In this document: piece by piece, positions 12,656 through 37,366 of the stretch
How positions within the stretch are numbered: position 1 is the first letter of the stretch
Layout of the letters: each line of letters starts with the position of its first letter
Assembly (NCBI GenBank): GCA_026416715.1
Contig: JAOAEQ010000005.1
Span: forward strand, 1,190-65,189
Reading direction: 5' to 3'
Length of the DNA stretch: 64,000 nt
DNA from: a bacterium
GTDB lineage: Bacteria; UBP4; UBA4092; JAOAEQ01
Position numbers and translations under genes: made by a program
Notes under the pieces: generated by a model
Told to the model about the DNA's origin: nothing
Seen by the model: the letters and a program-made list of their open reading frames with translations, nothing else
Databases searched by the model: none

Positions 12656-14080
12656 TCAAAAATCAGAAAACACTTTCAGTCCCGCATGAATTTTCTTTTT
12701 TAAATCTTTGACATTCCTAATTCGCATAATTTCTCTACCAAATTGTCTCGGACGGAAATAGAACTGCCGCATCGCTTTCTTCTGTGCTTGTATTAAATCT
12801 GATGCGGTAAGATGTTCAGTCCGCATTACTGCGGAACCCTCTTCTTCGAACTGACTCCAATCGTCGGTAATCAGCCAATGGTTATCTTTAGCGATTTGAT
12901 ATAATTCGGTACCAGGAAAAGGTGTGGCGATATGGAAATTAACATAATCCGGATCGAGCTTTTTTGCAAATGAAATTGATTGGTCGATGGTCTCCCAAGT
13001 TTCTCCAGGTAACCCTATTATAAAATAGGCAAACGCTAAAATCCCCGCTTCTTTCGTCCATCGAATCGCCTGTTCTGCTTGAGCTAACGTTATTCTTTTT
13101 TTCGCTCTATCAAGTATCTCCTGATTACCCGATTCAATGCCATAGGAAATCAATTCACAACCTGCAGCGTGCATTAATTTCAACATTTCAAAATCTACGG
13201 TATCAACCCGGCTATTCCCAATCCAACGAAAGTTGAGTTTGCGCATTTGGATCATATTACATAACTCAACTGTCCACGATTTTTTTAAGGTTAATGCATC
13301 AGTCATAAAAACAATATTGCGGATATTGTATTGATTAATAACCAATTCAATTTCATCGCAAACATTCTGTACTGACCGCAGTCGAATTTTTTCACCCCAA
13401 ACCGCGCCTGCTCGACAGAACGTGCATTGATAAGGACAACCACGAGAGGGAATGATCGTAACAAATGGTTCTCCATCGAAAAATGGCATTCGATATTTTT
13501 GGTTTGGCAATAAATGACGCGCCGGAAATGGAATGGTATCTAAATCTGAAATTAATGGACGCCGTGAATTGATTTGGATTTGCCCGCTTTTATCTCGAAA
13601 CGCTAATCCAGAGATTTTACTCCAATCAGCATTAAACTCGTTTGCTAATTCTAATAATGTGTATTCCGCTTCTCCAATAAGAATAAAATCAGCCACGGAT
13701 GCAGCTAATGATTCATAGGGAAGCACGGTTACATGGGTTCCAGTAAAACCAAGTTTGAGTTTCGAATCCTGAGGTTGAGATTTCGAGATGAATTCAATTA
13801 CTGCTGCGTCATTATTAAACGTTGGCGTGGTCGTATGAATAACAATCAATTCAGGCGCGAAACGGTTTATCTGGTGCTGTAGTTCAATTATCGTGATACC
13901 CTCTGCCATGGCGTCTAGAATTTTACAATCATGACCTGACTGTAGCAATACTGCAGCTAGATATGCTAGTCCCGTTTGTGGCCAGAGTTCACCAGCAATA
14001 CTCTTTCTTCCGCAACGACCGAGTTCTTTCATATAAATAGTTCCGCTTAAATGCGGTGGATTCAATAATAATATTTTCAT
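12656..14080 (-). CDS. B12-binding domain radical SAM protein
   Basis: 474 aa; N-terminal B12-binding-like domain and CxxxCxxC cluster (GCPYQCTFC). Confidence 0.8.
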   Translation of the reverse strand: MKILLLNPPHLSGTIYMKELGRCGRKSIAGELWPQTGLAYLAAVLLQSGHDCKILDAMAEGITIIELQHQINRFAPELIVIHTTTPTFNNDAAVIEFISKSQPQDSKLKLGFTGTHVTVLPYESLAASVADFILIGEAEYTLLELANEFNADWSKISGLAFRDKSGQIQINSRRPLISDLDTIPFPARHLLPNQKYRMPFFDGEPFVTIIPSRGCPYQCTFCRAGAVWGEKIRLRSVQNVCDEIELVINQYNIRNIVFMTDALTLKKSWTVELCNMIQMRKLNFRWIGNSRVDTVDFEMLKLMHAAGCELISYGIESGNQEILDRAKKRITLAQAEQAIRWTKEAGILAFAYFIIGLPGETWETIDQSISFAKKLDPDYVNFHIATPFPGTELYQIAKDNHWLITDDWSQFEEEGSAVMRTEHLTASDLIQAQKKAMRQFYFRPRQFGREIMRIRNVKDLKKKIHAGLKVFSDF

Positions 14081-14175
14081 AGGATACTCAAACCAGCGCT
14101 TCGCATATCCAGGTTGTTATATATCATACGGTATATGACGCGGGATTCATCGTGTCTATGGATTCTCCATTGAGA

Positions 14176-15015
14176 TTACTGAGCACGATGGATAAGAAGG
14201 TCGGCTAATAAACCGAGGATAGCGATTTCAACTCCTGTAACCACACAAGTGATCGTTGATACATCCATCAGTGTTCCTAGAATGAATTTGCTATATATCC
14301 CAATAAATAATCCAAGTAGGATTAACATGAGACTTACTGGTAAGAATATGCGGATTGGATTAAAATAAACAATAGTCCGCAGAATTAAAATAAAAAAATC
14401 AGCGGTATGTTTAATCGGCTTAATTTTTGATTGCCCAATTCGAGTCCGGTATTCTATTGGAACATATTTAACAAAATATCCATTGCAATGCAGCGCTAAG
14501 GTTAAAGTTGTGGTAAATGAAAATCCGTTTGGTAAGATGTGCCGGAATTGGTGAATTAAATCTTTTCGAAATACACGAAGTCCGGAGTTTAAATCTGGAA
14601 TTTGTGTCTCTGCAAGATAATTGGCTAGTTTCGATAGCGTCCATTTCGCTAATCTCCGTGAAGCGGGAATAGTTTTCCGTGCGCCAACAACCATGTCATA
14701 CTCGTTTCGTTCAGAAATTAACTGTGGGATAGCCTCTACAGGATATGTCCCATCAGCGTCAAGAATGAGTATCCAATCATATTTCGCTTGATTTACTCCG
14801 GTTTTAATTGCTGCGCCATATCCTCGATTTTCCGGATGAATGATAAGTTTAACCGGTTTATTTTTCACTATTTCAGCGGTTCCATCGGTTGACCCGTCAT
14901 CAATTACAATGAGTTCATATTCTTTTCCAGTTAATATGGAATTAATTTCATCAATAACTTTACCGATACTAGCCGATTCATTAAATGCTGGGATTATTAT
15001 GGTTAACGCTTCCAT
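14176..15015 (-). CDS. GT2 polyprenyl-phosphate sugar synthase (DPM1/ArnC/GtrB-like)
   Basis: IIIPAFNE...IVIDDGSTDGT...LDADGTYP motifs of GT2 family with C-terminal transmembrane helices. Confidence 0.8.
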   Translation of the reverse strand: MEALTIIIPAFNESASIGKVIDEINSILTGKEYELIVIDDGSTDGTAEIVKNKPVKLIIHPENRGYGAAIKTGVNQAKYDWILILDADGTYPVEAIPQLISERNEYDMVVGARKTIPASRRLAKWTLSKLANYLAETQIPDLNSGLRVFRKDLIHQFRHILPNGFSFTTTLTLALHCNGYFVKYVPIEYRTRIGQSKIKPIKHTADFFILILRTIVYFNPIRIFLPVSLMLILLGLFIGIYSKFILGTLMDVSTITCVVTGVEIAILGLLADLLIHRAQ

Positions 15016-15088
15016 TTGAACTTATGGTTATCCTTAATTAATATTGTAATCTATTATAAAATATTAAATGTTGTTTATATACACTAAT

Positions 15089-16561
15089 TTATGCTTGTAT
15101 GAGCTCACGGTTGTCTTCTAGAGAGACAACCCGAACTATATAATATCCTGTGAACAATAGAATCAGTACCGCTACTATCGGTAAACTTTTTATCCATATA
15201 GGTAAACTTGATTGCCAAAGTTGCAGGAAAAATAAATCGATTATCCCTTGCCGGACAATTTCCCAATATCCGATTAAACTCGAATGTGCTGGAATATATA
15301 ATGAATACCATAACGCAGGTACCTGGGTGAGTAACCAGTGATGATAATCCATAAAACTTACGAGAATAGCGGTTATCTGAACAAACATACCAACCGCAGT
15401 CAAGAGCACAATCCAAGCCCAGAACAAGGAATGAGGTTTTCTAATATACTTTTCAAATAACGCTAAAACTGGTATCAACAAAAATATATGGATTTGGAAT
15501 ATATGCCGGGGACCCCAACACCATCCACCTGCCCAGCTTTCCCATTTAGCGTAAAATAAAAGATATACTACCGCAATTGCACAGCAGAAGTAAGATTCGT
15601 ATCGTTTTTCCTGCCAGAATGTTTTCAGTGCGATAAAGAACAAAAGTATCGGTGGCGAAAAAAGAAAAATACTCCTTCCTGAACTGAACAACAATCCATA
15701 TAACCCATCCAATAACGGATAGCTAAAAGTTAATCCTTCGGATTCGTAGCCGGTTGAAGTTACCGAACCGAACCGCACGTAATTATATAAGGCAACTAAT
15801 CCGCAAAATAATCCTATCGGGATTAACCAGAAGATTATAGGTCGAACTGCGGATTTAAACCATCGGGATGGAGTAACTGTTGTTAACCCAAACAATAAAT
15901 ATCCTAGATAGAGCGGAACTGTGATGATACTATCGATTCGCGTAAAAATCGCATAGCCAAGTGCACTTCCCGACCAAAGCAACCACCGGAGTTTATTGGT
16001 AAGTTTATAGGAATATAAACTATAAAATGCAAATAAGAGTAATAAGGTAGCTAATGGTTCGGAAAAGAAAGTTTTTGCATGTGGCATTGCCATTGTTGCC
16101 AGTCCATAGATTAATGTTACCAACAATGCTGCGCGTTTTGTATACCCTAAAACAATCCCAAAATGAAATAATAATAAACAGGTTACAGCGGTCACCACCT
16201 GATTAAATCGCGATACCGCTAATCGGGTAACATTTTCATATAGAGTTCTGCCAGGGTACCGAAACACTTGATTCCAATCTGCAGGAATAACCTGCACCAA
16301 CCCTGTCCCGAAATAATACAATGGTACTGCTAACAACGGTTGACCTAATCCGTAATGACCATAATATCTACCGCTCGCATCCGCTTGCGTGAATCGATCT
16401 CCACCGGGGACTAATGGTTGAATTGCAAATCCCTGAAATTGCGCCATACTTTCTGCCGTCCGAAACATTATTTCTTCATCTGGCGAATATAAATGGCCGC
16501 CCATGATCAGGGTATAAAACGCAAAGAAGAACAAGAAAATAGCGAGATATAATAACTTCAA
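15089..16561 (-). CDS. GT-C-type polytopic membrane glycosyltransferase (PMT/ArnT-like)
   Basis: 490 aa, about 12 hydrophobic segments, DE motif in the first loop (YSPDEEIMFR); adjacent to a polyprenyl-P-sugar synthase. Confidence 0.6.
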   Translation of the reverse strand: MKLLYLAIFLFFFAFYTLIMGGHLYSPDEEIMFRTAESMAQFQGFAIQPLVPGGDRFTQADASGRYYGHYGLGQPLLAVPLYYFGTGLVQVIPADWNQVFRYPGRTLYENVTRLAVSRFNQVVTAVTCLLLFHFGIVLGYTKRAALLVTLIYGLATMAMPHAKTFFSEPLATLLLLFAFYSLYSYKLTNKLRWLLWSGSALGYAIFTRIDSIITVPLYLGYLLFGLTTVTPSRWFKSAVRPIIFWLIPIGLFCGLVALYNYVRFGSVTSTGYESEGLTFSYPLLDGLYGLLFSSGRSIFLFSPPILLFFIALKTFWQEKRYESYFCCAIAVVYLLFYAKWESWAGGWCWGPRHIFQIHIFLLIPVLALFEKYIRKPHSLFWAWIVLLTAVGMFVQITAILVSFMDYHHWLLTQVPALWYSLYIPAHSSLIGYWEIVRQGIIDLFFLQLWQSSLPIWIKSLPIVAVLILLFTGYYIVRVVSLEDNRELIQA

Positions 16562-16577: not shown

Positions 16578-17747
16578 TTATGTAGTTCGGAAATATTCTC
16601 GAGTTACGATAAAGCCTGAGGAAATAAAGAAACCACTAAAAAATGCTATGATAGAAATGACTCCCTTTCTAGGCCATATATGTTGTTCTGGAACAACGGC
16701 TTTTGCAAAGATTTTTATATCTTCTACCTGTTCCGCTTTTGCAATTTTTGCTTGTTCTGCTTTTTCTGCTAACATAATATAGGTTTGTTTATATTTATCA
16801 ACTTCCCGTTGCGCTCGACTAATGAGTGTTTCGCCGGTAACAATTTCGTTCTGCAGTTTCTGTACCTCTTTTTCCAGCTGTTGAATCGTTTTATTGAGAT
16901 CATGTATCTGAATAGTAAGCATATCAATTCGCTTTTGTATCTGATTTCTTTCATCTGGAGAAAACTGAGGTCCAAGTTTATCTAAAAGATTTTGTGTAGT
17001 ACTTAGCTCATACAACATACTCGCTTGCAATCCACGATATCCCTGTTCTATCTTTTGTGTTTCAGTCGGTGTATAAACAGAAATAATGGTGGGTTGCTGC
17101 GCCCTGAATAGTGACGGAGCTGAATTTCCATCTAACTGCTGCAATTTACCAGCTAATTCGCTCCGTAAGTTTTCTAATTTATATTTCTCTTTGAGCTGTT
17201 TGACAATTTCTTCTGCCTGTTTCAGATTCTGTTCGGTGCTATCTAACTGGTTAGTTAATAATTGATATGCACGATCAATTTCCCGTGAACTTAAATGTTC
17301 GGTTCGAGCAACGAAAAGTTCTGCCCATTTATTTGCAATCGCTGCTGCGGTTTCTGGACTATCCGATTTCACAGTTAAATATATCACCGGAGTAAATATT
17401 GATTTCGGTTGTGATTCTATAACCACTTTTGTATTCATTTTCCGCTGTAATTCTTCGACGGTAATTTTTTTTAACTGTAATTGGTCAATGATTTCCTTAA
17501 CCAACTCCCGACTTTCTAACAGCGCTTGATAGGTTGGTGCACTAAATGCTGTCGGCTGAACATCAGTCTGAAATTTCGGCGGCATAACCAATAATGTCGC
17601 TTTGGCTTCATAAGTTTTCGGGATAAAAAAACTGATAATCAGCGCAATCATTCCACAGAATACACTACAGCCAATAATAAGATGTTTGTATTGCCAAAGA
17701 ATTTTCCCAACTTGTATGGTATATAAGTTTCCATTTTCACTGGTCAT
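16578..17747 (-). CDS. Wzz/GumC-like polysaccharide chain-length determinant protein
   Basis: N-terminal TM helix followed by PKTYEAKATLLVMPP, long coiled-coil periplasmic region, C-terminal TM helix. Confidence 0.65.
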   Translation of the reverse strand: MTSENGNLYTIQVGKILWQYKHLIIGCSVFCGMIALIISFFIPKTYEAKATLLVMPPKFQTDVQPTAFSAPTYQALLESRELVKEIIDQLQLKKITVEELQRKMNTKVVIESQPKSIFTPVIYLTVKSDSPETAAAIANKWAELFVARTEHLSSREIDRAYQLLTNQLDSTEQNLKQAEEIVKQLKEKYKLENLRSELAGKLQQLDGNSAPSLFRAQQPTIISVYTPTETQKIEQGYRGLQASMLYELSTTQNLLDKLGPQFSPDERNQIQKRIDMLTIQIHDLNKTIQQLEKEVQKLQNEIVTGETLISRAQREVDKYKQTYIMLAEKAEQAKIAKAEQVEDIKIFAKAVVPEQHIWPRKGVISIIAFFSGFFISSGFIVTREYFRTT

Positions 17748-17754
17748 AGATTGA

Positions 17755-19140
17755 TTATCTCGCTCCTTTACCGGTGAGCACTACCCGGATGGTTGAAAAT
17801 ATAATTTTTAAATCTAGCATTAATGAGATATTATAAACGTAAGCTAAATCGTATCGCAACTTGTTTTCTACCGAAGTATCATACCGGCCATGAATCTGGG
17901 CTAATCCCGTTAGTCCCGGACGCACTTTCAAACGCCGGGAATAAAAAGGTTCAAATTGATAAAATTTCTTGACAAATTCAGGCCGTTCTGGTCGCGGTCC
18001 AACCAAACTCATATCCCCTTTTAGAATATTCAATAATTGTGGGAATTCATCAATTCGTGTCTTTCGGAGAATAGCACCGAATCGAGTTATTCGGGGATCA
18101 TTTAAAGTCGCTAATACCGGTCCGGTTAAATCTTCTGCATTCTTGACCATGGTACGAAATTTATATAGCATAAATTGTTTCCCATCTTTACCGACACGTT
18201 GCTGCCGATAGAATACCGGACCAGATGAAGTTAATTTTATTAAAAGCGCTATGATACAAAACGGGATGAGCAAGACCACTAATGCGCCTAATGAAACTAC
18301 AATGTCCAGAAATCGTTTTATTACTGGATATACACCAGAAAATGCATGCGATTTGATTTCAATCAGTGGAATACCAGCAGTTTCCTGTAATGTTATCCGA
18401 CCGACGGTAACTTCATAGAGCGATGGTAGGACTTTCACTTTAACCCGAGCTCCGATATTCTCACATAAAGAAATTAAGCGTAATAAATCATTTGGCGCCA
18501 CTCCAGTTACCGCAATAATTAGTTCGGTAATTTTCAATTGGGAAACTAATTCATGTAATTTCGATATTTTCCCCAACATAGGCATGGATGGTTCTCCATT
18601 CGACGGAGTGATTTCTGCATCAATGATTCCTAATACTTGATGTCCATATTTAGCGTAATCTTTCATTTCGTCCATAATCTCCTGTCCTAACCGACCAGAA
18701 CTGATAATTGCTACTCGTGAAATAAAACTCCCTCGTGCCCGTTCGATTCGATAATATAAAATTCGCCAACTAGATAATAATACTATCGTCCATAACCAAT
18801 TGTATAGCAATAATCCCCGTGAAATATTAGCTGTCGGGAAAAAATACGTTCGACTAACTAACATAATGAGAAATGAAAATAACCAGCTTATTGTAACCGC
18901 CCAAAAGGTATTATAAATTATGTCGAATGGATATCGATCCTGGTCAAGTTTATATAATTGAAATAGAGCGAGTGTAATTAAATGAATTACAGTGATTAAA
19001 GGAGATAAATAGAAAAAAATATTTACGTGAACAGGTTGCGGTACGCCATGAAATTTAGTAAAAAAACCGAGACAGATTGCTGTATGAATTAAAATACAAT
19101 CTGCAAGGATTGCTGAACTAATGATAAGTTTTTGTTTCAT
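17755..19140 (-). CDS. Polyprenyl glycosylphosphotransferase (bacterial sugar transferase, WbaP/WcaJ-like)
   Basis: C-terminal catalytic domain motifs FYRQQRVGKDGKQFMLYKFRTM...DEFPQLLNILKGDMSLVGPRPERP; N-terminal TM helices. Confidence 0.85.
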   Translation of the reverse strand: MKQKLIISSAILADCILIHTAICLGFFTKFHGVPQPVHVNIFFYLSPLITVIHLITLALFQLYKLDQDRYPFDIIYNTFWAVTISWLFSFLIMLVSRTYFFPTANISRGLLLYNWLWTIVLLSSWRILYYRIERARGSFISRVAIISSGRLGQEIMDEMKDYAKYGHQVLGIIDAEITPSNGEPSMPMLGKISKLHELVSQLKITELIIAVTGVAPNDLLRLISLCENIGARVKVKVLPSLYEVTVGRITLQETAGIPLIEIKSHAFSGVYPVIKRFLDIVVSLGALVVLLIPFCIIALLIKLTSSGPVFYRQQRVGKDGKQFMLYKFRTMVKNAEDLTGPVLATLNDPRITRFGAILRKTRIDEFPQLLNILKGDMSLVGPRPERPEFVKKFYQFEPFYSRRLKVRPGLTGLAQIHGRYDTSVENKLRYDLAYVYNISLMLDLKIIFSTIRVVLTGKGAR

Positions 19141-19406: not shown

Positions 19407-20387
19407 CTATTGAATTCTGCCTGCCTTAACCAGTTCATTGTATATCCAGCGATAAGTTATTTCGAGTCCTTGTTCTAACGAAATCTGTGGCTCCCATTGT
19501 AACACTTGCCGAAGTCGAGTATTATCACTATTTCTCCCACGAACACCTTGTGGTTTCGTTAAATCGTATCGTTTAGTTATTTTCTTCCCAGCGATTTTTG
19601 CAACGATATCTACTAAATCATCTATACTGACTAATCGGTCAGTACCCAAATTCAATGGTTGATGATAATCGGACTGCATTAATCGATAGATACCTTCAAC
19701 ACAATCGTCAATGTAACAATATGACCGAGTCTGTTTTCCATCGCCCCAAACTTCTATTTCGTCAACTGGTTTTGCTAATGCTATTTTCCGGCATATAGCA
19801 GCAGGCGATTTTTCACGACCACCTTCATAAGCACCGAGTGGTCCATAAATATTATGGAATCGAACAACATAGGTTTTTAAACCGTAATCTTCATAGTAAT
19901 GACGGCACGCGCGTTCAGTATATAATTTTTCCCAACCATAACCATCTTCTGCATCTGCAGGATATGCATCTTCTTCTTTGAGTGGGATAACATTCGTATC
20001 TTTTTGACGATAGCCAGGATAGATACATGCAGATGAAGTGAAAAAGTATCGGGAAACACCCTGTAATCGCGCTGCTTCTAGCATATGCATATTAATCAGG
20101 ATATTGTCATAAACAATCTCTGCTTTATGCGTCTCAATGAACCCAATACCGCCCATATTTGCAGCTAGATTATATACCTGGTCGATTTTACGGACTGCCT
20201 GTAAACAATTATCCCAACGACGTAAATCTAGCAATTCAAATTCATCCGCTACCGTAGGTTCATATTCTGGCAATTTAATATCAACTCCACGAACCCAATA
20301 TCCTTTTTGTTTTAAAAATTTCACCAAGTGATGTCCGATAAATCCACCGGCGCCGGTAACCAAAATTTTTTCTAACCGATTTACCAT
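19407..20387 (-). CDS. GDP-mannose 3,5-epimerase homolog (SDR family)
   Basis: Extended similarity to GDP-mannose 3,5-epimerase as I recall it: GAGGFIGHH Rossmann loop, FFTSSACIYP, YGWEKL, RFHNIYGP..GGREK.PAA.CRK, GVRGRNSDN. Confidence 0.7.
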   Translation of the reverse strand: MVNRLEKILVTGAGGFIGHHLVKFLKQKGYWVRGVDIKLPEYEPTVADEFELLDLRRWDNCLQAVRKIDQVYNLAANMGGIGFIETHKAEIVYDNILINMHMLEAARLQGVSRYFFTSSACIYPGYRQKDTNVIPLKEEDAYPADAEDGYGWEKLYTERACRHYYEDYGLKTYVVRFHNIYGPLGAYEGGREKSPAAICRKIALAKPVDEIEVWGDGKQTRSYCYIDDCVEGIYRLMQSDYHQPLNLGTDRLVSIDDLVDIVAKIAGKKITKRYDLTKPQGVRGRNSDNTRLRQVLQWEPQISLEQGLEITYRWIYNELVKAGRIQ

Positions 20388-20400: not shown

Positions 20401-21678
20401 CTATTTTATGAATGTGCGTTTTGTTACATTACTAAGTAACGTATGATATGCTTGTACAGCGGTTATTAAATTGTATTTCTTTTCAATCGCATAACGCGCA
20501 TTATATCGCATTTCATTTAATCTTACCTGATTATTATACAGGGATAAAATCGCATTGAGCAACCCAACTTTATCTCCCGGTTCTACCACAACACCGCAAT
20601 TCTCCTCTTGGATAACCTTAGCAATTTCCGATTTCGCCGACATAATCGCGATGACGGGAACGCCAGCAGCTAAATAGCCAAAGGTTTTGGAAGGAACAGA
20701 CAACCCTTCTTGCCCACGAGCTAGTGAAACTAATCCCAAATGCGCACAGGATAATGAGAATCCGAGTTGTGCGCGTTCAACATAGGTATGAAACTGGCAA
20801 TTGGTTAAATGATTATCTTGCGCAAACTGCTGCATCCATTGTTTATAATGCCCTTCCCCAATAAACAGAAACTCTATATCTGGATACACCTGCAATTCTT
20901 TTACGACAGCCATAATTGTTTCCAGATCGTGGTATCGTCCCATATTGCCAGAATAACTAATTACGAATTTATCTTTTAACTTCCACTGGTCAATGTACGG
21001 ATTCGGTTTTCCGAACGCTTGCTGAATAAGACGGTCGTCACTCCAGATATGGATACGGTGGATTTTATCTCGGTCTTTTAAACCGTGCTGTTCGAACTTC
21101 TTAATAATTACTTCTTCCATACATCTACCGATAACTACGATAGCAGTCGCATGACGATATGTAAATTTATTAAACCATTCCCAGAGTTTTGCAACGAAAC
21201 TATCTTTTTTTAGTACACCAAGATTAATTGCACTATCCGGATACACATCGAAAATCAAATAGATATATGGTTTTCCGAGACCGATACTTTTTAAAATAGC
21301 ACAACTAACCGCAAGAAATGGCGGATTGGTTAAGACTAAAATCGGTCGTTTGCTGAAATCACACAATAGCTTGATAAAAGTTGAACTTGCATAGGTTATC
21401 TGGTTGATAATTCTTCCCCACAAATGCAACTTCGGAAATCGCGTTCCCCAAACCCGATGAATTCTTATTCCTTGATATTCAAGATATTTTGGAATTTTAT
21501 TTTGTTTTTTTAGAATGGTTACTGGACCACAGATAACTTCGATTTCAACTCCCAATTTTACTAATTCTTCACATAATTCGGTTAACGTCTGCCCAGTAGA
21601 AACGAGCTCTGGATAAAATAGTTGACAGAGAACCAATACTTTGATTCGATAATTATTGTTATTTTTATCCATTGACAA
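20401..21678 (-). CDS. GT4-family glycosyltransferase (WcaI-like)
   Basis: GT-B fold GT4-like sequence, N-terminal VLVLCQLFYPELVSTGQ typical of WcaI-type enzymes. Confidence 0.75.
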   Translation of the reverse strand: MSMDKNNNNYRIKVLVLCQLFYPELVSTGQTLTELCEELVKLGVEIEVICGPVTILKKQNKIPKYLEYQGIRIHRVWGTRFPKLHLWGRIINQITYASSTFIKLLCDFSKRPILVLTNPPFLAVSCAILKSIGLGKPYIYLIFDVYPDSAINLGVLKKDSFVAKLWEWFNKFTYRHATAIVVIGRCMEEVIIKKFEQHGLKDRDKIHRIHIWSDDRLIQQAFGKPNPYIDQWKLKDKFVISYSGNMGRYHDLETIMAVVKELQVYPDIEFLFIGEGHYKQWMQQFAQDNHLTNCQFHTYVERAQLGFSLSCAHLGLVSLARGQEGLSVPSKTFGYLAAGVPVIAIMSAKSEIAKVIQEENCGVVVEPGDKVGLLNAILSLYNNQVRLNEMRYNARYAIEKKYNLITAVQAYHTLLSNVTKRTFIK

Positions 21679-29188: not shown

Positions 29189-30556
29189 TTATCTTTCTAT
29201 GTGACCTTCCAAAATATAAGATAAATAATCTTCCTTTTGCCCGATGCTCTGATATAAATCCATTAAGAACCGACCAAATATTTTTCGTAACCAAATCCAT
29301 CGTTCTCCAATTGGGATAGATAAATCCATAAACTCTACCGGTAATCGGCGTAATGTTAATTGTGATACAAGCTGAGATGCTTTTCTTAAGTGGAATTCAG
29401 CTTCAGGTAAATCATTGATTATTGCTATCGCTCGGAAAGCAAAATGTAAATGATATAGGCAACTGATCATTTTCCCGATTTTCCCTTGCCAATACCAATT
29501 CCACCATCTATAAATTGTCCTTTGGTTGAAATGTTTTGCTACTAATGTTAATTCGTATACTTTTCGTCTGAATTTGTATTCATTAAACAACCGCGTTTGG
29601 TATTTTTCAAGGATGTTCGGTAGTTCAGTATCTGGAACTTTAATATTATTAACAGCTAACAGATGTTTACCTGCCTGGATAAAATACGCTAACGTTTGCT
29701 GGTATAACTGTTCTGTTGACTCAGGAAAAATGAACTTGAACTTTCCATCCAAACATTGATTTAGAAAATCTGGAAATGAAGAATTAAAATAACGCCGAAG
29801 TTGTAAATCTGGATAATGCTCACGAATATAATCGACTCGTTCTCTAAATGAAGACAATAAAACTTTTTCCCATGGTAGGAGATAAGTGGTTAAATCCAAT
29901 GAATTCCGACATAAAACGAAATTGAATAATTCTTGGTTATTATTTCCTTCCGTTCTTCCGTTTTTAGGTTTTGTAATCAGCCAGGATCGTGGTACATATA
30001 ACGCTATTGCCCATAATCTCCATAAAATCACTTCCGCTAATTCCCGGTAATCCAGATTATCGCAATTAATTTCCGGAATTTCTGAACGTATATCGGTTCC
30101 GAAGATAGTTTTCCCGATCTTTTTTGCTTCATAATGACGGATTAATGGCGGTAGTTGCTGTACCTGGCGTAATGAAATATAACTGCAATCAATATGAAAT
30201 AACGGGGAATTTTTATTCCATTTTTTTTCTAATTGCGCGAGTTGAACAAATAATCGCTTCCGTTCAGTGTTGCTAGGTTTTCTTTTCGATACGGCTAATA
30301 ATTCAATATCACTCCATAATGAAATCTGCCCATCAGGTTCAATCCGATAACTAAATTCACCTCGAGCGGTACTACCCAGCAGTAAAATAGATAGAATATC
30401 AGATACACTTTTCTCTGTAATAACTTGAATTTCAGATAAGTAGTTGTGAATAAGGGTAGGATAACCAAATTCATTGCAGAGCGATAGCAAACTCGATTGT
30501 TCCATATGAATGAATAAAATTACCGCTGATTTCTGAATATCTTTTAGTGGATTCAA
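29189..30556 (-). CDS. Hypothetical protein with Pol-beta-like nucleotidyltransferase motif
   Basis: 455 aa; LLLGSTARGE...SDIELL resembles an hG[GS]...DhEh nucleotidyltransferase core but with atypical spacing; the rest is helical and unrecognised. Confidence 0.4.
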   Translation of the reverse strand: MNPLKDIQKSAVILFIHMEQSSLLSLCNEFGYPTLIHNYLSEIQVITEKSVSDILSILLLGSTARGEFSYRIEPDGQISLWSDIELLAVSKRKPSNTERKRLFVQLAQLEKKWNKNSPLFHIDCSYISLRQVQQLPPLIRHYEAKKIGKTIFGTDIRSEIPEINCDNLDYRELAEVILWRLWAIALYVPRSWLITKPKNGRTEGNNNQELFNFVLCRNSLDLTTYLLPWEKVLLSSFRERVDYIREHYPDLQLRRYFNSSFPDFLNQCLDGKFKFIFPESTEQLYQQTLAYFIQAGKHLLAVNNIKVPDTELPNILEKYQTRLFNEYKFRRKVYELTLVAKHFNQRTIYRWWNWYWQGKIGKMISCLYHLHFAFRAIAIINDLPEAEFHLRKASQLVSQLTLRRLPVEFMDLSIPIGERWIWLRKIFGRFLMDLYQSIGQKEDYLSYILEGHIER

Positions 30557-30711: not shown

Positions 30712-31683
30712 TTAGCGTATAATGGCAAATCCACCAACTTTAAACAATTCTAACCATAATGGTTCTAATCCACCCACTTCAAATTCTAGGGTAACATAAT
30801 TGTTCCGGGTAACGACCTTACTTTTCCAGTCAATTTTCTGGGCGATAAACTTCCTCCGAAATGCTTCTCCAATAAACTCGGCATCATCAATAACATCCTT
30901 AATCCTATTTATTTTGGCAACGTCAAACAGCATCGTTCCACGCAATCTATCCGAATTAATAATATCCATCTCAATCACAATACTACGAATATCTTCTGCA
31001 GAAAGTAACAAACTCATTTTCCATTTTTTCTCACGCAAAAGCAGGAATTTAGCAAAATGTTGGTGATTATTATTGCAAAAAATTATTATATCTCGTCGAG
31101 GTATTGAGCTGGCTCCTCCAGCTACAATATCCGGTACCGTGATTATATGTTTGATTTTACGCAAATAAACCTGAATGGTCGTTTGTATTGCCGCTAGGTT
31201 ATTCCCGATAATTAATTGATGGTCTAAAATTGCGTATCCAATCTTTTTCGTCCATGAAGTATCCGTCCCGTAAATAATCTGAAAACCGGATTCCGTATAG
31301 GTAGTCCAATTCGATTTTGCACCTAATTCATTACTCAATTTATTTTTTATAAACTTTATAAACTCAGTATTATTGTTAACTGCTTGCCGATAAGTTAATA
31401 TTACTATATATTGGAGATTATTAGGATCAGAATCAGGATAAAGTGCTGCTATACCGGAAACCGGTGTGAGTTTGGCTACAATCTCGCGTATCGAACTTTT
31501 TCTCGGGATAGTAACCCAGTTGTCAAATAGCCAGGATATTCCTGGGTCATTTGATTTGACATCTACTTTTAAATAAACAATTGCATTTGATGCCACTAGT
31601 ACTTGTTCTTCTGCATTTATCAGTCCAAAATATGAAAATAATATCACCACACTTACTAAAATTAATGTGTAATTCGGTTGCAT
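30712..31683 (-). CDS. Hypothetical secreted or membrane-anchored protein
   Basis: Start taken at internal Met (MQPNYTLILVSVVILFSYFGLINA signal-like segment); no recognisable domain. Confidence 0.45.
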   Translation of the reverse strand: MQPNYTLILVSVVILFSYFGLINAEEQVLVASNAIVYLKVDVKSNDPGISWLFDNWVTIPRKSSIREIVAKLTPVSGIAALYPDSDPNNLQYIVILTYRQAVNNNTEFIKFIKNKLSNELGAKSNWTTYTESGFQIIYGTDTSWTKKIGYAILDHQLIIGNNLAAIQTTIQVYLRKIKHIITVPDIVAGGASSIPRRDIIIFCNNNHQHFAKFLLLREKKWKMSLLLSAEDIRSIVIEMDIINSDRLRGTMLFDVAKINRIKDVIDDAEFIGEAFRRKFIAQKIDWKSKVVTRNNYVTLEFEVGGLEPLWLELFKVGGFAIIR

Positions 31684-31873
31684 ATTTGTTTTTTTATAAT
31701 AACACTTTTTAAAACATAAATATTCTATCATATCAATATCATATCACTACATCATTCTCTATCTTAGCACTTTTCTTTTCAAACAGTATTAGATTCTGTC
31801 CTTAAAATACTTTTCCTTAAAAAATTAATGTAAGTAGATAACAAAATAAATTTATTATCAGTTATTCTTTCGG

Positions 31874-34639
31874 TCATTGAAAATCTATCCAACCCAAATC
31901 AATCGCTTCTCCAAACGTACCCTCCCCATCTCGATAGAAACCAAAAATTACTTTATAAGAAAGTGGTTCTGCAATAATATCGTTATGAATAATAACATAC
32001 TTCCCTACTGGCCAATGAGTGGTAACTGGATAAGGATAAAAATCCCAATTCTGCCCTTTCATCTGCCTATTAGATTCTGGCAATAATCCCACATCTTCTT
32101 CTTTTACTCTGCCGTGAATATAAACCAACCAATCCTTTTCTAACGGTTGATTTACTTTAAACAAGAAATACAGTCGATATTTTTTAGGTTCTAATTTTTT
32201 TAAATACACGTCAATAAAAGTTATTGCTGGATGGATAACTTTTTCTTTTCCACTCTGATGTTTAATACATAATGTTTCGAAGCTAGATGCTATTTCCCTG
32301 TATAGTTCGGGGATAATATTTTCGTAAAAAGCATAGGTCTGTAAAAATTCACCTATTTCAAAAATATTTTTACTGATTGATAACTGTTTCCACCTTTTAT
32401 ACAGTAAACCATCAAGATTATCCGTTGCAAAATCAATCCACCCTAATGGAATCGGTTTCCCGAAGGTTTTTCCTCCTTTATAAAAGCCGATAACTATATT
32501 ATATGGAATTGGTTCTGCTGAAATCACTCTCGATACAATGATGCTTTCATTTTTCCGCCAAGTTGATGTAGGTGGATCTGGCCAAAAATCCCAATTTTGT
32601 CCTTTCCACGATTGTACTTTTTCTGGTAACCTTGAAACATCTTCTTCTGCCACTTTACCGTGAACATATATTGCCCAATCGGTATCCATAAGTTCTTCCG
32701 TTTTAAATAATAAATATAGTTTATATTGTTTTGGATCAATCTTTTTATAATAATATCCCAAAAAGGATACCGCTGAATTCACTGCGAATCCCTGATGTTT
32801 AGTATATTCGGATATTATAGCCCTATATTTTTTATCTATTTCTTGAAATAGTTCCGGAAACGCTCTCTGATTAGATTGATATAATGAACGAAATTCATAG
32901 ATTTCAAATGGATTATTACTTGCTAAGATACGTTGCTGAGTTTTATCGACCTCATTTTTCGAAATCGAATACAGATACCAACTATACCCGTCTATTGGTT
33001 GTGCACCGGCATCGATACTCTGGTACGGCGTTTTTTTACCCTGCAATAATGCAGCAAGTTTACCACTCCAAGTTAAACATGGATATTCCTCGATTCTCGT
33101 AAACGTTGTTTCGAGGGTTAGTCCGAAAAGATTCGGTTCTCGAGAAACATAATAAATCTTTTTAACTCCAATATAATTACTAGGCCAATCTATTAAAACT
33201 GGATTATTGCGTTTATAGTAATACGGCAAAAATTCGTTAAAATAAAGCATGATTTTCTGTTCATATTCTTCTACTTGTTTAACTACCACTACTGCACCAG
33301 TAGAAAGTTTCTGGTCTAATTCAGTTAGCAATCGCTTTTCAATAGTTCTTGCATTATATTGCACAAGAAATTGATAAAGGAAATTGTGATAATTAACCAC
33401 GAGAAAGAAAAATAAAAACAAAACGACACCTCCAACTATGACCATGCCGAATCTTCTATTATTTTTAGCATGAGCCCAGATGGGTATAGTAGAAAAAGCT
33501 AATATTATTGCCAGCAATGGTACCACCGGATACCAATATCGTAATGCTTGCTCCCACGAGGTACAAAGAATGCAATATAATCCTATAAACTCAATAATAA
33601 GTATTAGGAAAAAAGTATTCGATTTCGCAATCGTTTGCGTTTTTCCATAAATTCGTCCCCAAATATATATTCCTTTTCGCAGATATCCCAGCCGCACCAA
33701 TCCTAATAATAGAAAGGCAATACTGAGAATAATCTGGGTATCAAGCAATAAGATACTTCGAACCAACCACCATCCGTTACTTACCAAAAGTTTTAAAGTT
33801 ATCGTTGGGACACCGTATCCACCTCCTTGAAAGGCTAGTTTGACTCGGAAAAAAGTGTATAGCAATACTAAAATCAACGGTAGCAGGCGGAATAAATATT
33901 TTTTCGAACTATGGTTTGATTCTAAGATGATGAAAATTAATAAAAATATAAACAGTAAAATGATATTTATCTCTTTCACAATTGATAAGCCAAAATAGCT
34001 AATGTAAATGAGAAAAAGATTCAACCGCGATGTAGAACTAAATTCGCCATTGGACTGGACAATGAGTATCGCTATTGCATAGTTAATGATGGCTAAAAAT
34101 AAACCGGTATGTAATTCCACCGGAGCTAGTCTTGCTTCGGGGTTATTGGGAAAGAAAAAGAATATGAAACTAAATGTTAGAACCGGAATATTGAATGATT
34201 TAATTAGCCTAATGAAACAGCGATTGACATTATCTTTTCCCTGGTGTAATGATTGTTGCTCGTGATTGGTTTGTATGAATAAAGAAAGACATTTAATCCA
34301 GAAATAAAACGAAATAAGTTTTACTACCCAACGAAATGCATGATGTAAAACCGGATTTGGTCCAAACAAAAACCAGACAAAAAAGTTATAAATATAGAGA
34401 AACGGACGATATCGACCGGAACCCAAATTGATAAATGTATTGTTAACCCAAGCAGCGAATTCACTGGCATTTTCGGCCAACTTAACCACTTGCCAGTCAA
34501 TATAATCGTCAATAAGTCCAAACGGCGTTTTCAGTGAATAATATATTGCAGGAAGAAGGAGAACAAAAATAATTAGGTAGATTAACCAATTTAAGAAGTG
34601 CGTTTTCATACTCTTTCGATAATTTGAACTTTTGACCAT
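31874..34639 (-). CDS. Large polytopic membrane protein with tandemly duplicated C-terminal extracytoplasmic domain
   Basis: 921 aa; N-terminal about 420 aa with many TM helices; two about 160 aa repeats (FEIYEF...GWIDFATD and FEIGEF...GWIDFQ) sharing KGQNWDF and GWIDF motifs. Confidence 0.6.
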   Translation of the reverse strand: MVKSSNYRKSMKTHFLNWLIYLIIFVLLLPAIYYSLKTPFGLIDDYIDWQVVKLAENASEFAAWVNNTFINLGSGRYRPFLYIYNFFVWFLFGPNPVLHHAFRWVVKLISFYFWIKCLSLFIQTNHEQQSLHQGKDNVNRCFIRLIKSFNIPVLTFSFIFFFFPNNPEARLAPVELHTGLFLAIINYAIAILIVQSNGEFSSTSRLNLFLIYISYFGLSIVKEINIILLFIFLLIFIILESNHSSKKYLFRLLPLILVLLYTFFRVKLAFQGGGYGVPTITLKLLVSNGWWLVRSILLLDTQIILSIAFLLLGLVRLGYLRKGIYIWGRIYGKTQTIAKSNTFFLILIIEFIGLYCILCTSWEQALRYWYPVVPLLAIILAFSTIPIWAHAKNNRRFGMVIVGGVVLFLFFFLVVNYHNFLYQFLVQYNARTIEKRLLTELDQKLSTGAVVVVKQVEEYEQKIMLYFNEFLPYYYKRNNPVLIDWPSNYIGVKKIYYVSREPNLFGLTLETTFTRIEEYPCLTWSGKLAALLQGKKTPYQSIDAGAQPIDGYSWYLYSISKNEVDKTQQRILASNNPFEIYEFRSLYQSNQRAFPELFQEIDKKYRAIISEYTKHQGFAVNSAVSFLGYYYKKIDPKQYKLYLLFKTEELMDTDWAIYVHGKVAEEDVSRLPEKVQSWKGQNWDFWPDPPTSTWRKNESIIVSRVISAEPIPYNIVIGFYKGGKTFGKPIPLGWIDFATDNLDGLLYKRWKQLSISKNIFEIGEFLQTYAFYENIIPELYREIASSFETLCIKHQSGKEKVIHPAITFIDVYLKKLEPKKYRLYFLFKVNQPLEKDWLVYIHGRVKEEDVGLLPESNRQMKGQNWDFYPYPVTTHWPVGKYVIIHNDIIAEPLSYKVIFGFYRDGEGTFGEAIDLGWIDFQ

Positions 34640-34668: not shown

Positions 34669-35364
34669 TTATTTTTTCCGCGCACAAACTGCAATGGTGA
34701 CCATCCATCGTGCTAATCTCTTATCTAACTTCTTATCCAACCATCTTAATATGCCATTCAACCAAGGAATAACAGATGGGAATACATGAATGCCTTTGTA
34801 TTCAAGTATTTCTAAATTAAGATTCTCTAGAAAAATCCGAAATGCTTTATAATAATGGAGCCAATTTTCGTATCCTTTATGCCTTCTTACTCCAATTACA
34901 TTGGCTAAAACAACCGCAAAATACCAGAATGATTTATTGGGAACAGTGATACAAATAATCCCATTTTTTTAAGACACGAACCAGTTCCCGAGTAGCTTGT
35001 AGCGGGTTGGAAGTATGTTCGATAACATCAGAAGAAATAACATATCCAAATGCATTTTCCTTAAAAGGCATCGCGAGAATTGAACCAACCACACCGTGAG
35101 CCATTGAATTTTTTTCTTTTGTTATCTTAACGAGTCGTTCACCAATATCAATTGCAATTACTTTTCCGGATCTATCTATTATCGCTTTCGTAAACCACCC
35201 GGTACCGCAACCGGCATCGAGAATAAGTTTATTCTCTAATATTTGCGTACCTAAAAATCAGTAAAAATAACCTCAATTCTTCTCTGGGTATCATATCGGT
35301 TGCTTAGTGAATCAAATTTAATAGCTATTTCATTATAAAATTTCTCTTTATCATTACTTTTCAC
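34669..35364 (-). pseudogene. Class I SAM-dependent methyltransferase interrupted by two frameshifts in homopolymer runs
   Basis: No ORF of 60 aa or more in the track; manual minus-strand translation gives three consecutive frames with methyltransferase motifs (LILDAGCGTGWF, VIAIDI, RVLKK then GIICITVPN); frame breaks coincide with T7 (34964-34970) and A5 (35252-35256) on the plus strand; no in-frame ATG. Confidence 0.5.
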
Positions 35365-36277
35365 AATTTTTTTCTTTAATAATATATTGTGGTCTGCGTT
35401 TCGATTCAATAAATAGTTTCCCTAAATACTCACCAATTATTCCTAAGATGAGAAGTTGTATACTCCCGATAAACAAGACACTAACAATAAGTGACGCCCA
35501 ACCAGGAACAGTTTTATCAGTAAATATTGTTATACCTACCGCATATCCTCCATAAAGAATGCATAAAAATGCTAATATTAATCCTAAAAAGGTTGCTAAA
35601 TGCAATGGCCTAGTACTAAATGAAGTAATTCCGGTTATCGCAAGAAGAATCATATTTTTAAAGGAATATTTGGTCTTCCCGGAATATCTTTTTTGAGGAG
35701 TATATTCTAATGCATATTGGCGGAAACCAACCCAAGAAACTAACCCTCGAAGGAAAATAAAGGTCTCATTCAGTTCTCGTAATATATCAATCACCTTTCT
35801 ATCTAATAATCGGAAATCTGCTGTTCCCGGAGTTATTTCAATTTCAGATATTTTATTCAGTAGTTTATAGAATAACCACGACGTTTTTCTCTTTAAAAAT
35901 GAAGCATCAGGGTATTCTTTCCGGACAGTATACACGATATCGTATCCTTCTTGCCATTTTTGAATCATCGCATCAACTAATTCTGGAGGATGTTGTAAAT
36001 CTGCATCAAGAGTGATTAAACAGTCTCCTGTCGAATAATCTAGCCCGGCTTTTAATGCTTTTTGTTGGCCAAAATTTCGCGAAAACGCAAGATATTTTAT
36101 CTTAGCTCCGTTTTCTACAAGTTCTTTAATTCGTTCTAACGTTGCATCCGTACTGCCGTCATCAACAAAAATAATTTCGTAATCCGAATACTTGTTTAAG
36201 ACCTCGGTTAGTTTCTTTACAAGAATCGGAATATTTTGTTCTTCATTATAACAGGGGATTACTACAGATATTTTCAT
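35354..36277 (-). CDS. GT2 polyprenyl-phosphate sugar synthase (GtrB/ArnC-like)
   Basis: VVIPCYNEE...IFVDDGSTD...LDADLQHPP GT2 motifs and C-terminal TM helices. Confidence 0.8.
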   Translation of the reverse strand: MKISVVIPCYNEEQNIPILVKKLTEVLNKYSDYEIIFVDDGSTDATLERIKELVENGAKIKYLAFSRNFGQQKALKAGLDYSTGDCLITLDADLQHPPELVDAMIQKWQEGYDIVYTVRKEYPDASFLKRKTSWLFYKLLNKISEIEITPGTADFRLLDRKVIDILRELNETFIFLRGLVSWVGFRQYALEYTPQKRYSGKTKYSFKNMILLAITGITSFSTRPLHLATFLGLILAFLCILYGGYAVGITIFTDKTVPGWASLIVSVLFIGSIQLLILGIIGEYLGKLFIESKRRPQYIIKEKNCEK

Positions 36278-36292
36278 GGTATCGTTTGGGTA

Positions 36293-37366
36293 TTAGTATA
36301 ATTGAATATCATCAATAAATATTTCGCAATTAACTCCGAGTGTATTGATTCCGATAACTTCCATAACCATATTTTTAGTACTCCATTGGTTTACTGGATT
36401 TAATGCGGTCGCAACTGCCTGTTGATAAAGATCATTTGCTTCAATTTTCGTCCATACTTTTGGTTGCAAACGGATAACAGCAGAAATTCCACCAGCTTCG
36501 GGTCCATATTTTGCTTGTGGTTCGGTTTTTTCATATCGAAAACTAACAACCAATTGCACCACTGATTCTTTGTTTGCATAAACGAACATTCTAACTCCAA
36601 CAGGATGGGTAAACGGCAGAAATACGACCTTCCCCCATAAATCTGGATTTTGTTCGTTATACTCAATCGAGAACAATTCGGATTTTTGACCCCGATATGA
36701 AAGAGTTGAACTTAATGTATGTGTTTTTATTACAGCAGTATTATTTTTTACCCAACGGTCAAAAACTGGTACACTTGTTCGCTCAAAATTTTCTACAGTT
36801 ACAAAAACATCGTGACCATTCCACAGGATATTTTTCCATGGTTTTAAAAAACTTTGATTAGCCATTTGTTTTAGTGTTGCCAAAGAAGCGATCGGATCGC
36901 ATGAGAGCATAGCTCCTAAACTATATGCATCTTCCGCTTCAACCCATTTCTTTTCAACAACATATACAGAAGCGATTGACCAACAGATAGTCTGCATTTC
37001 TTCACGGAAGCTTACCCAGTCAACATGAGTCGGTCGAATCTGCTGAAATCTATAAAACATATCGAGTGTTCGGGTATATTTTTTCTGCAAATAGTATAAT
37101 TTTCCTAAATAAAAATAAGCTTCTCGATCCTCTGGATTTATCTGAATAGCTTTTTCAAAGCTATAAATCGCAGGCAATATTTGTCCATTCTTAAATAACT
37201 CTTTTCCTCGAATAACCGCTACTTTGGGATCGGATAAAGCTATTTGTCGCATATATATTGAGCCCCAAAAAACTATTATGAGAAATCCAATAAGCAAAAA
37301 TAGCCAAATGATCAAAATTCCATTAAGGTTTAGTTTCTTCATATTGTTATTATTCGAAATAATCAT
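36293..37366 (-). CDS. Signal-anchored TPR protein with C-terminal domain shared with the C25-like peptidase at 39770-43228
   Basis: N-terminal hydrophobic segment, TPR-like repeats (REAYFYLGKLYYLQKKY), C-terminal about 170 aa (SYRGQKSEL...GINTLGVNCEIFIDDIQLY) homologous to the C-terminus of the 1152 aa protein; 4-bp overlap with the upstream gene. Confidence 0.55.
   Translation of the reverse strand: MIISNNNNMKKLNLNGILIIWLFLLIGFLIIVFWGSIYMRQIALSDPKVAVIRGKELFKNGQILPAIYSFEKAIQINPEDREAYFYLGKLYYLQKKYTRTLDMFYRFQQIRPTHVDWVSFREEMQTICWSIASVYVVEKKWVEAEDAYSLGAMLSCDPIASLATLKQMANQSFLKPWKNILWNGHDVFVTVENFERTSVPVFDRWVKNNTAVIKTHTLSSTLSYRGQKSELFSIEYNEQNPDLWGKVVFLPFTHPVGVRMFVYANKESVVQLVVSFRYEKTEPQAKYGPEAGGISAVIRLQPKVWTKIEANDLYQQAVATALNPVNQWSTKNMVMEVIGINTLGVNCEIFIDDIQLY

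Follow-up and report, generated by a model that had tools for sequence, protein, structure and literature searches.

Positions 12656-37366 of a 64-kb stretch of bacterial DNA (contig JAOAEQ010000005.1 of assembly GCA_026416715.1; the whole stretch is hereafter called the window) carry a minus-strand locus of about 25 kb for surface-polysaccharide assembly. The core of the locus is ordinary, and it probably directs a Wzx/Wzy-dependent pathway that builds a heteropolysaccharide on undecaprenyl (polyprenyl) phosphate, with extra modules that would decorate the product. Its most notable element is a protein of 921 amino acids (aa) that represents a predicted GT-C-fold glycosyltransferase family outside current sequence models, repeatedly partnered with GtrB-type synthases. 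Gene identities were assigned by open reading frame (ORF) calling and by Pfam and NCBIfam searches at model cutoffs, transmembrane (TM) segments were predicted for each protein, and absences of locus components refer to the ORFs of the window.

In the ORF list, the genes form an unbroken minus-strand run with intergenic gaps of 6-266 bp, except for a single gap of 714 bp, and a run of such composition is far beyond chance. The initial annotation had described a single-strand glycan locus with two polyprenyl-phosphate-sugar/GT-C modules, and this description is borne out by GtrB/DPMS kinship, TM helices, GT-C fold and motifs, and synteny; all of the locus genes that it listed are likewise present on the minus strand at the positions it gave, as judged from ORFs, Pfam and NCBIfam. 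Housekeeping genes occur on both sides (argB, aroC, aroE, prfA, gatA/B and lptF/G), and on the basis of these flanks the locus is considered chromosomal and its host a diderm. The G+C content is 0.335-0.36 across about 24-40 kb, relative to about 0.38-0.42 in the housekeeping flanks, and the low value between 24000 and 40000 is consistent with the distal half of the locus having been exchanged laterally. The Wzx/Wzy gene set itself lies on one strand with short gaps, and the core genes are as follows:

16578-17747, minus strand: Wzz-type polysaccharide co-polymerase (chain-length determinant), matching Wzz at 44.7 bits and GNVR at 46.6 bits, both above cutoffs
17755-19140, minus strand: initiating polyprenyl-phosphate hexose-1-phosphate transferase of the WbaP/WcaJ type (Bac_transf, 236 bits, plus CoA_binding_3)
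19407-20387, minus strand: short-chain dehydrogenase/reductase (SDR) acting as a nucleotide-sugar epimerase/reductase, distantly Fcl-like (Epimerase, 169 bits; GDP-L-fucose synthase, 144 bits, below cutoff)
20401-21678, minus strand: GT4 glycosyltransferase, WcaI-like (Pfam GT4 domains; WcaI subfamily, 144 bits, below cutoff)
21665-22792, minus strand: GT4 glycosyltransferase (Glycos_transf_1, 128 bits)
22801-24252, minus strand: polytopic Wzy_C-domain protein of 483 aa (Wzy_C, 55.7 bits against a cutoff of 31.7; about 12 TM segments)
24415-25590, minus strand: GT4 glycosyltransferase (Glycos_transf_1, 139 bits; Glyco_transf_4, 95 bits)
25709-27022, minus strand: flippase of the Wzx/MOP family (matches to Polysacc_synt, Polysacc_synt_3, MatE and MurJ; 12 TM segments)
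27141-27929, minus strand: cytoplasmic S-adenosylmethionine (SAM)-dependent methyltransferase (Methyltransf_23, 95 bits; no TM segment)

Several of these assignments are firm. The phosphotransferase passes NCBIfam model TIGR03025 with 436 bits against a cutoff of 296, and the flippase exceeds the cutoffs of Polysacc_synt, Polysacc_synt_3 and MatE. The co-polymerase, at 389 aa, has a TM segment at each terminus and is without a kinase domain. The gene for the Wzy_C protein is flanked by GT4 genes in a locus that also encodes Wzx and Wzz, and its product is the probable repeat-unit polymerase, a WaaL or PglL-like role being the alternative; the Wzy_C domain family takes in PglL/PilO, Wzy and WaaL, and NCBIfam offered no model that separates a polymerase from a ligase or the PglL type for this protein.

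Taking gene identities, folds, conserved motifs and synteny together, we infer an order of steps for the locus, along with the sugars, acceptor and final anchor that it entails. The WbaP/WcaJ-type phosphotransferase (17755-19140) would start the repeat unit at the cytoplasmic face, and the three GT4 enzymes would lengthen it, with sugars supplied in part by SDR enzymes. Cytoplasmic tailoring could follow, for which the methyltransferase and a nucleotidyltransferase (NTase)-fold/alkaline phosphatase-like pair, described below, are candidates. Wzx would then flip the unit, the Wzy_C protein would polymerize it, and Wzz would set the chain length. Finally, two separate modules would add side-branch sugars at the periplasmic face: in each, a membrane-anchored GT2 enzyme would charge polyprenyl phosphate with a sugar, and the sugar, once flipped, would be passed to the acceptor by a GT-C enzyme. 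Module A would consist of GT2a, a PMT_2-type GT-C enzyme and a B12-dependent radical SAM enzyme, and module B of the GtrB-type GT2b and the 921-aa protein. The Gtr, ArnC/ArnT and GT136 three-component systems served as models for the proposal (PMC11127046).

Upstream of a pair of C25 peptidase genes considered below lie two further SDR genes (45965-47062 and 47147-48088, both on the minus strand), which encode 4,6-dehydratase-like paralogs that are 37% identical. Their best matches are of the LegB, Gmd and RmlB types, all below cutoff, and the pair may be a source of 6-deoxy sugars for the locus.

The evidence favours an O-antigen-like product: the co-polymerase lacks a kinase, Wza is absent from the window and the host is a lipopolysaccharide (LPS)-making diderm. 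The same Wzx/Wzy chemistry could also yield a secreted exopolysaccharide or a capsule, with Wza/Wzc-type or exosortase-associated export encoded elsewhere, and the best, sub-threshold NCBIfam matches of Wzz, one GT4 enzyme and the phosphotransferase are indeed to XrtA/PEP-CTERM exopolysaccharide families, while a GNVR motif is typical of the PCP-2 family. Those scores, however, are well below their cutoffs, the 64-kb window holds no kinase domain, Wza or exosortase, and a 389-aa co-polymerase with two TM segments matches the Wzz (PCP-1) architecture, so that a secreted product is rather unlikely. The XrtA/PEP-CTERM assignment was itself rejected, given scores far below cutoff and the lack of an exosortase in the window.

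The element of greatest interest, the 921-aa protein, lies in the distal half of the locus, within the following group of genes:

31874-34639, minus strand: candidate GT-C-fold enzyme of 921 aa from an unmodelled family, assigned from predicted fold and synteny
34670-35355, minus strand: class I SAM methyltransferase gene with two frameshifts (ORF fragments; the repaired translation matches Methyltransf_11 at 76 bits)
35354-36277, minus strand: GT2b, a GtrB-family polyprenyl-phosphate glycosyltransferase of 307 aa (Glycos_transf_2, 136 bits)

The 921-aa protein is predicted to possess a GT-C fold, with a domain of 10 or more TM segments and a periplasmic alpha/beta domain at about residues 446-570. 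Immediately after the first TM segment occurs the motif TPFGLIDDY, in which T38, P39 and D44 are invariant in the family and D45 is at least 90% conserved. The C-terminus contains a tandem duplication of a domain of about 173 aa (41% identity, E 5e-51); its last 350 residues have no family match and a structure prediction with pLDDT below 50, and the duplicated domains probably bind the acceptor. By sequence the protein has no match in Pfam or NCBIfam, its family profile found none in the PDB, and the models of ArnT/PMT_2 and of YfhO both fail to match it; none of 30 family members matches a GT-C model of Pfam, with DUF6056 appearing weakly in three. Remote homology to the family of the 490-aa PMT_2-type enzyme of module A was considered and rejected (hhalign probability 0.3%).

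GT2b is a more familiar enzyme. It matches the solved Synechocystis GtrB (5EKP) over its full length at 290 bits, with ArnC next, and its best NCBIfam models are PgfS (298 bits) and ArnC (169 bits), both scores being below the equivalog cutoffs. Two TM helices lie at the C-terminus (233-251 and 263-281), and the label "DPM1/GtrB-like", which the initial annotation had given to both GT2 proteins of the locus, is right for GT2a as well as GT2b. That annotation had also placed each GT2 gene beside a large polytopic membrane protein. This is true of GT2a and its 490-aa partner; GT2b and the 921-aa gene, on the other hand, are separated by the 714-bp gap, which is filled by the broken methyltransferase gene. 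Its frameshifts fall at homopolymer runs (T5 near 35245 and A7 near 34965), it is orthologous (244 bits) to an intact gene that lies between the GtrB-like and GT-C genes of a Pirellulales locus (L008), and the break reflects either a real pseudogene or a fault in the assembly.

Relatives of the 921-aa protein were sought by scanning one genome per species, and 42 loci were recovered, all from metagenome-assembled genomes, in Planctomycetota, Desulfobacterota, Verrucomicrobiota/Kiritimatiellia, Spirochaetota, Binatia, Latescibacterota, Entotheonella, Gemmatimonadota, Acidobacteriota and Chloroflexota. Among the 40 loci with a solid anchor, 14 have a GtrB-like gene (271-440 bits against GT2b) within 1 kb of the homolog, and these 14 come from Planctomycetota, Desulfobacterota, Verrucomicrobiota, Spirochaetota, Binatia, Latescibacterota and Chloroflexota; a metagenome contig (L003) shows the same pairing. 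The Pirellulales locus is particularly informative, with the order B12-radical SAM, GtrB-like, methyltransferase, GT-C homolog, GT2 and phosphotransferase, and it also encodes a heptose-type sugar pathway (SIS, GHMP kinase, HAD and NTP_transferase). Loci without a GtrB-like gene are mainly those of Dehalococcoidia, where tandem arrays of 2-5 paralogs occur (L021, L023, L027 and L030), and this pattern suggests that the family expanded in that lineage with another source of donor or another acceptor.

Module B can be compared with several known systems. It resembles Gtr O-antigen glucosylation (GtrA/GtrB/Gtr*) of Shigella, Salmonella and phages in combining a GtrB-family synthase with a polytopic GT-C partner in a Wzx/Wzy locus. 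Unlike Gtr, the locus is without a gtrA gene, the GT-C partner is unlike any modelled family and has periplasmic and duplicated C-terminal domains, a broken methyltransferase gene lies between the pair, and the host is an environmental bacterium rather than an enterobacterium. The GT136 pentofuranose system of Citrobacter youngae (PMC11127046) is similar in its post-polymerization periplasmic glycosylation by a new GT-C family, and its GT-C enzyme, like the 921-aa protein, has an extra extracytoplasmic domain, which in GT136 is of a carbohydrate-binding type. GT136, however, relies on a phosphoribosyl pyrophosphate-dependent polyprenyl-phosphoribose synthase and a MATE flippase, whereas the synthases here are GT2 enzymes of the GtrB/DPM1 type and no dedicated flippase was seen. 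Finally, the ArnC/ArnT system of lipid A modification and the CsbB/GtcA/YfhO and PgfS/PgfM systems of Gram-positive bacteria also pair a GT2 polyprenyl-phosphate sugar synthase with a GT-C enzyme, in keeping with the PgfS and ArnC matches of GT2b; the differences are the scores, all below the equivalog cutoffs, and the failure of the 921-aa protein to match either the ArnT/PMT_2 or the YfhO type.

The second module lies at the opposite end of the locus and comprises three genes:

12656-14080, minus strand: B12-binding radical SAM enzyme of 474 aa, HpnJ/BchE/AprD4-like (Pfam B12-binding and Radical_SAM)
14176-15015, minus strand: GT2a, a membrane-anchored candidate polyprenyl-phosphate hexose synthase of the DPM1/AglJ/ArnC type, 279 aa (Glycos_transf_2, 112 bits)
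15089-16561, minus strand: GT-C glycosyltransferase of 490 aa, PMT/PMT_2 (GT39/GT83-like; PMT_2 at 23.3 bits, below the cutoff of 26.1)

GT2a has two TM segments at its C-terminus, its best NCBIfam models (AglJ, Dol-P-hexose transferase and PpgS) all score below cutoff, and its best PDB match is the Pyrococcus DPMS (5MLZ, 63.5 bits), followed by ArnC. The 490-aa protein matches the LA_3751/LA_3752 family at 45 bits and has about 9 TM segments; a PDB sequence search gave nothing useful for it. In all, 389 homologs were detected, many of which, at 34-75% identity, carry PF02366 and PF13231, and the closest named relatives, from Sumerlaeota and Hydrogenedentota, are only 31-38% identical. The invariant residues G22, H23, S26, P27, D28 and E30 of the family make up a G-H-x-x-S-P-D-x-E motif (HxYSPDEE from H23 on) directly after the first TM segment, and this position is the hallmark of the catalytic acid in GT-C enzymes.

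The radical SAM enzyme scores best against HpnJ in NCBIfam (TIGR03471, 298 bits against a cutoff of 578) and next against BchE (217), and its nearest solved structure is AprD4 (114 bits). Both HpnJ and AprD4 act on sugar moieties (PMC9204698), and this kinship, together with the gene arrangement of the Pirellulales locus, suggests that the enzyme may remodel the sugar carried by module A. The HpnI/HpnK/HpnJ pathway of hopanoid head groups, AprD4 and MoeK5 involve B12-type radical SAM enzymes that act on sugars linked to lipids or aglycones, and they offer a likeness, in that the gene for a B12 radical SAM enzyme here neighbours that of a GT2 producing a lipid-linked sugar (PMC9204698); the differences are that the HpnJ score is about half the cutoff, that Pfam and NCBIfam annotation revealed no hopanoid genes in the window, and that the partner here is a GT-C enzyme.

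The initial annotation had suggested comparison across relatives as a check. The closest relative (L050, 75% identity) keeps the core order of the window, GT4-GT4-SDR-phosphotransferase-Wzz-GT-C-GT2, with a polymerase from another family (PF01901), and the mosaic of kept and swapped genes in this contig and in another (L004, considered with the NTase-fold protein below) is typical of variable surface-glycan loci. In two further relatives with GT-C proteins 54-56% identical (L051 and L052), the GT-C gene, a GT2a ortholog (347-376 bits) and the B12-radical SAM gene are all kept outside any polysaccharide locus. The radical SAM ortholog of L052 (633 bits) adjoins the other two, the B12-binding/Radical_SAM gene of L051 lies at the end of its locus, and both have an additional small GT2 gene upstream of the trio. 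A homolog that is 40% identical sits alone among housekeeping genes; the trio is therefore restricted to a clade of at least 52% identity, within which it is a portable unit.

Since the trio of L051 and L052 occurs outside polysaccharide loci, module A may serve another acceptor. It would then be self-contained, acting on a protein (in a manner like O-mannosylation) or a lipid, and its adjacency to polysaccharide genes in the window would be merely positional. Consistent with this, no Wzx, Wzy or phosphotransferase gene lies near the trio in those two contigs, the PMT/PMT_2 family includes protein O-mannosyltransferases, and a gene for a TMEM260-like protein with tetratricopeptide repeats (TPR) is found 5-6 kb upstream of the trio in both. 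Human TMEM260 is a protein O-mannosyltransferase (PMC10214176). Another such gene occurs in the window at 1173-3251, where the DUF2723-like protein of the initial annotation was confirmed as TMEM260-like plus TPR. However, this gene is separated from module A by housekeeping genes, ArnT-like transferases acting on lipids and glycans likewise belong to the PMT_2 type, and L051 and L052 are perhaps close kin and thus a single observation. Moreover, module A directly follows the Wzz and phosphotransferase genes on the same strand in both the window and its closest relative (75% identity). A separate acceptor for module A is, on balance, unlikely, if a reading of some substance.

Several points weigh against the proposed Wzx/Wzy assembly and decoration. 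In addition to the placement of the trio in L051 and L052, with PDZ, pilin-like and hydrolase genes as neighbours, many homologs of the 921-aa protein, above all those of the Dehalococcoidia arrays, have no glycan genes nearby. No ORF of a size or family fitting a GtrA-type or second flippase is present in the locus or the window, and the intergenic gaps of the locus are too small to hold a gene for a GtrA-type flippase. The terminal-step genes WaaL, Wza and Wzc are missing from the ORFs of the window, and the Wzy_C domain does not tell a polymerase from a ligase or a PglL-type oligosaccharyltransferase. Finally, sequence, structure prediction and synteny form the whole basis of the proposal, and the organisms involved are uncultured.

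Some of these same points could be read in favour of a glycan destined for protein glycosylation or an S-layer-type glycoprotein, as the initial annotation had suggested, with the Wzy_C protein as a PglL-like O-oligosaccharyltransferase or with the GT-C enzymes acting directly on proteins. The Wzy_C family does contain PglL/PilO, WaaL, Wza and Wzc were not found in the window, the genes for the exported TPR, C25 and orphan proteins share the orientation of the locus, and relatives of the 921-aa protein abound in Dehalococcoidia, a group that would not be expected to make LPS O-antigen. In contrast, Wzz and a single Wzy_C protein fit polymerization best, the nearby LptF/G gene for LPS transport indicates a diderm that makes LPS, no evidence for an acceptor protein or sequon was found, and C25 homologs show no conserved linkage to glycan genes. 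The tests neither supported nor refuted the suggestion: no dedicated oligosaccharyltransferase was identified in the window, conserved linkage of C25 to glycan genes was absent from 80 related loci, and the sole hints are the TMEM260-like gene near the trio in two relatives and the position of that trio outside polysaccharide loci. Such a glycoprotein system is accordingly improbable, and O-antigen-like polysaccharide assembly remains the preferred reading.

In a broader and more tentative reading, which is possible but falls short of being probable, the 921-aa protein would found a new GT-C family, it would constitute with its GtrB-type synthase a periplasmic glycosylation cassette present in at least 10 bacterial phyla and expanded into arrays of 2-5 paralogs in Dehalococcoidia, and synthase/GT-C modules would recurrently be partnered by B12-radical SAM enzymes of the HpnJ/AprD4 class. 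The last partnership is seen with two unrelated GT-C families, one in the lineage of the window and the other in the Pirellulales locus. If true, the lipid-linked sugar would undergo radical remodelling (C-methylation, deoxygenation or ring contraction) before its periplasmic transfer, a step undescribed for three-component systems. Periplasmic side-chain glycosylation by a synthase and a GT-C enzyme drives serotype diversity and the evasion of phages and immunity, and new GT-C families are still appearing, GT136 having been founded as recently as 2024 (PMC11127046). A family that is invisible to databases and occurs in many phyla would mean that such modules are under-annotated in environmental genomes, and the 921-aa protein is a concrete candidate for biochemical characterization and CAZy classification. 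Of course, the impact hinges on experiments, as the core of the locus is ordinary and the organisms are all uncultured.

Between the Wzx/Wzy core and module B lie three further genes, the second and third of which, together with the 921-aa gene, are the three genes of the locus without a Pfam or NCBIfam match:

27936-29042, minus strand: cytoplasmic enzyme of the alkaline phosphatase superfamily (NPP/Phosphodiest type; Phosphodiest, 30.9 bits)
29189-30556, minus strand: rare NTase-fold protein of 455 aa, related by fold to aminoglycoside O-nucleotidyltransferases
30712-31731, minus strand: orphan protein of 339 aa, exported or anchored, with a single hydrophobic segment at its N-terminus

The 455-aa protein has the characteristics of the Pol-beta fold (ANT/MNT-like), namely a G[ST]x(n)D-x-[DE] motif and an NTase fold. 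In its neighbour, the alkaline phosphatase-like motifs D10, TPGFGYS, DLDGxxH, SDHGM and HGYHP are conserved across four orthologs, and the family retains the metal-ligand and nucleophile-type motifs of the superfamily; a PDB sequence search gave nothing useful for this protein, and TM segments are predicted in neither member of the pair. An ortholog of the alkaline phosphatase-like gene lies directly downstream of the NTase-like gene in all four contigs of relatives with flanking sequence (L004-L007), three of which place the pair within Wzx/Wzy/GT4 loci, and L004 keeps the order NTase-alkaline phosphatase-Wzx-GT4. As a hypothesis, the pair may work in two steps in the cytoplasm to add or process a substituent linked through phosphate. 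This invariant pairing and the recurrent B12-radical SAM partner point to undescribed glycan-tailoring chemistries. As a separate observation, in one of the four contigs (L005) a PRK/uridine-kinase-family gene (5715-6341, plus strand) stands directly upstream of the NTase-like gene and overlaps its start, and the resulting kinase, NTase and alkaline phosphatase-like series recalls LicA/LicC/LicD logic. The 339-aa orphan has no homolog in any locus retrieved.

The distal end of the locus is formed by one more gene, which is translationally coupled to GT2b:

36293-37366, minus strand: exported or anchored TPR protein of 357 aa (TPR matches)

Residues 189-357 of this protein match residues 955-1138 of a protein encoded farther upstream at 39770-43228 (32% identity, E 5e-22), defining a shared C-terminal domain of about 170 aa that ends in GINTxGxNxxhhhDDIxL; neither Pfam nor the PDB has a match for it, and no copy was found in 80 related C25 loci. 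The upstream protein (1152 aa) and its 881-aa paralog are the secreted peptidases that the initial annotation had noticed next to the locus, and both can now be identified as Peptidase_C25. PorU, the sortase of the secretion system of type IX (T9SS), is their best NCBIfam match (NF033707, 295 and 252 bits), below its cutoff of 420. The match extends over about 750 residues and takes in the part N-terminal to the C25 domain, and the nearest solved relative is PorU itself (6ZA2), with the catalytic domain in the same position and a nearly equal protein length. Catalytic His and Cys motifs are found in the 1152-aa protein, and both positions are among the alignment invariants for the 881-aa paralog.

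It is therefore tempting to compare the region with the A-LPS/PorU system of Porphyromonas gingivalis, which likewise combines a Wzx/Wzy glycan locus with PorU-like C25 proteins, and to propose that the pair are sortase-like transpeptidases joining secreted proteins to the glycan of the locus, as PorU joins T9SS cargo to A-LPS. The extent of the PorU match, the 6ZA2 relationship and the His/Cys motifs speak for this idea, as do the co-orientation of the C25 genes with the locus and the C-terminal domain that the 1152-aa protein has in common with the TPR protein beside GT2b. However, the scores do not reach the PorU cutoff, and the family is very large (17,343 representatives). When a four-sequence alignment was used to retrieve 80 related metagenome loci, none showed recurrent glycan-gene neighbours, and synteny is thus not conserved. 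PorU-type attachment further needs an amine-bearing linking sugar made by Wbp/Vim (PMC7468200), whereas the locus is without Wbp/Vim genes, and neither T9SS components nor cargo of the CTD type were seen in the window. A sortase role for the C25 pair is thus very improbable, and polysaccharide assembly with periplasmic decoration is again the reading preferred for the locus.

Other features of the window deserve brief mention. Promoter and terminator scans gave the same counts as in shuffled sequence and indicated no operon boundaries, and the sole match in Rfam and tRNA scans was a tRNA-Pro at 6373-6451. The window proteins that were looked up are all singleton clusters at 90% identity, and the NCBI locus tags of the window genes run from N3A72_02990 to N3A72_03055. 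Directly upstream of the TPR gene, an ORF at 37363-39519 (minus strand) encodes an exported protein of 718 aa that combines a CehA/McbA-family metallohydrolase (106 bits, cutoff 80) with CarboxypepD_reg; its 4-bp overlap with the start of the TPR gene makes co-translation with the glycan genes probable. Just upstream of the TMEM260-like gene, overlapping ORFs on the plus strand (383-781 and 724-1089) encode a HEPN-domain protein and a minimal nucleotidyltransferase (Polbeta/NTP_transf_2), and the pair looks like a HEPN/MNT toxin-antitoxin system. A 756-aa ORF at 49295-51565 (plus strand), with no Pfam or NCBIfam match, shares about 150 bp with the end of the ORF for the LptF/LptG permease (48324-49448). 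Finally, a 456-aa ORF at 53398-54768 (plus strand) fuses TatD_DNase (residues 5-254, 278 bits) to Radical_SAM (residues 273-440, 70 bits), a combination that seemed unusual.

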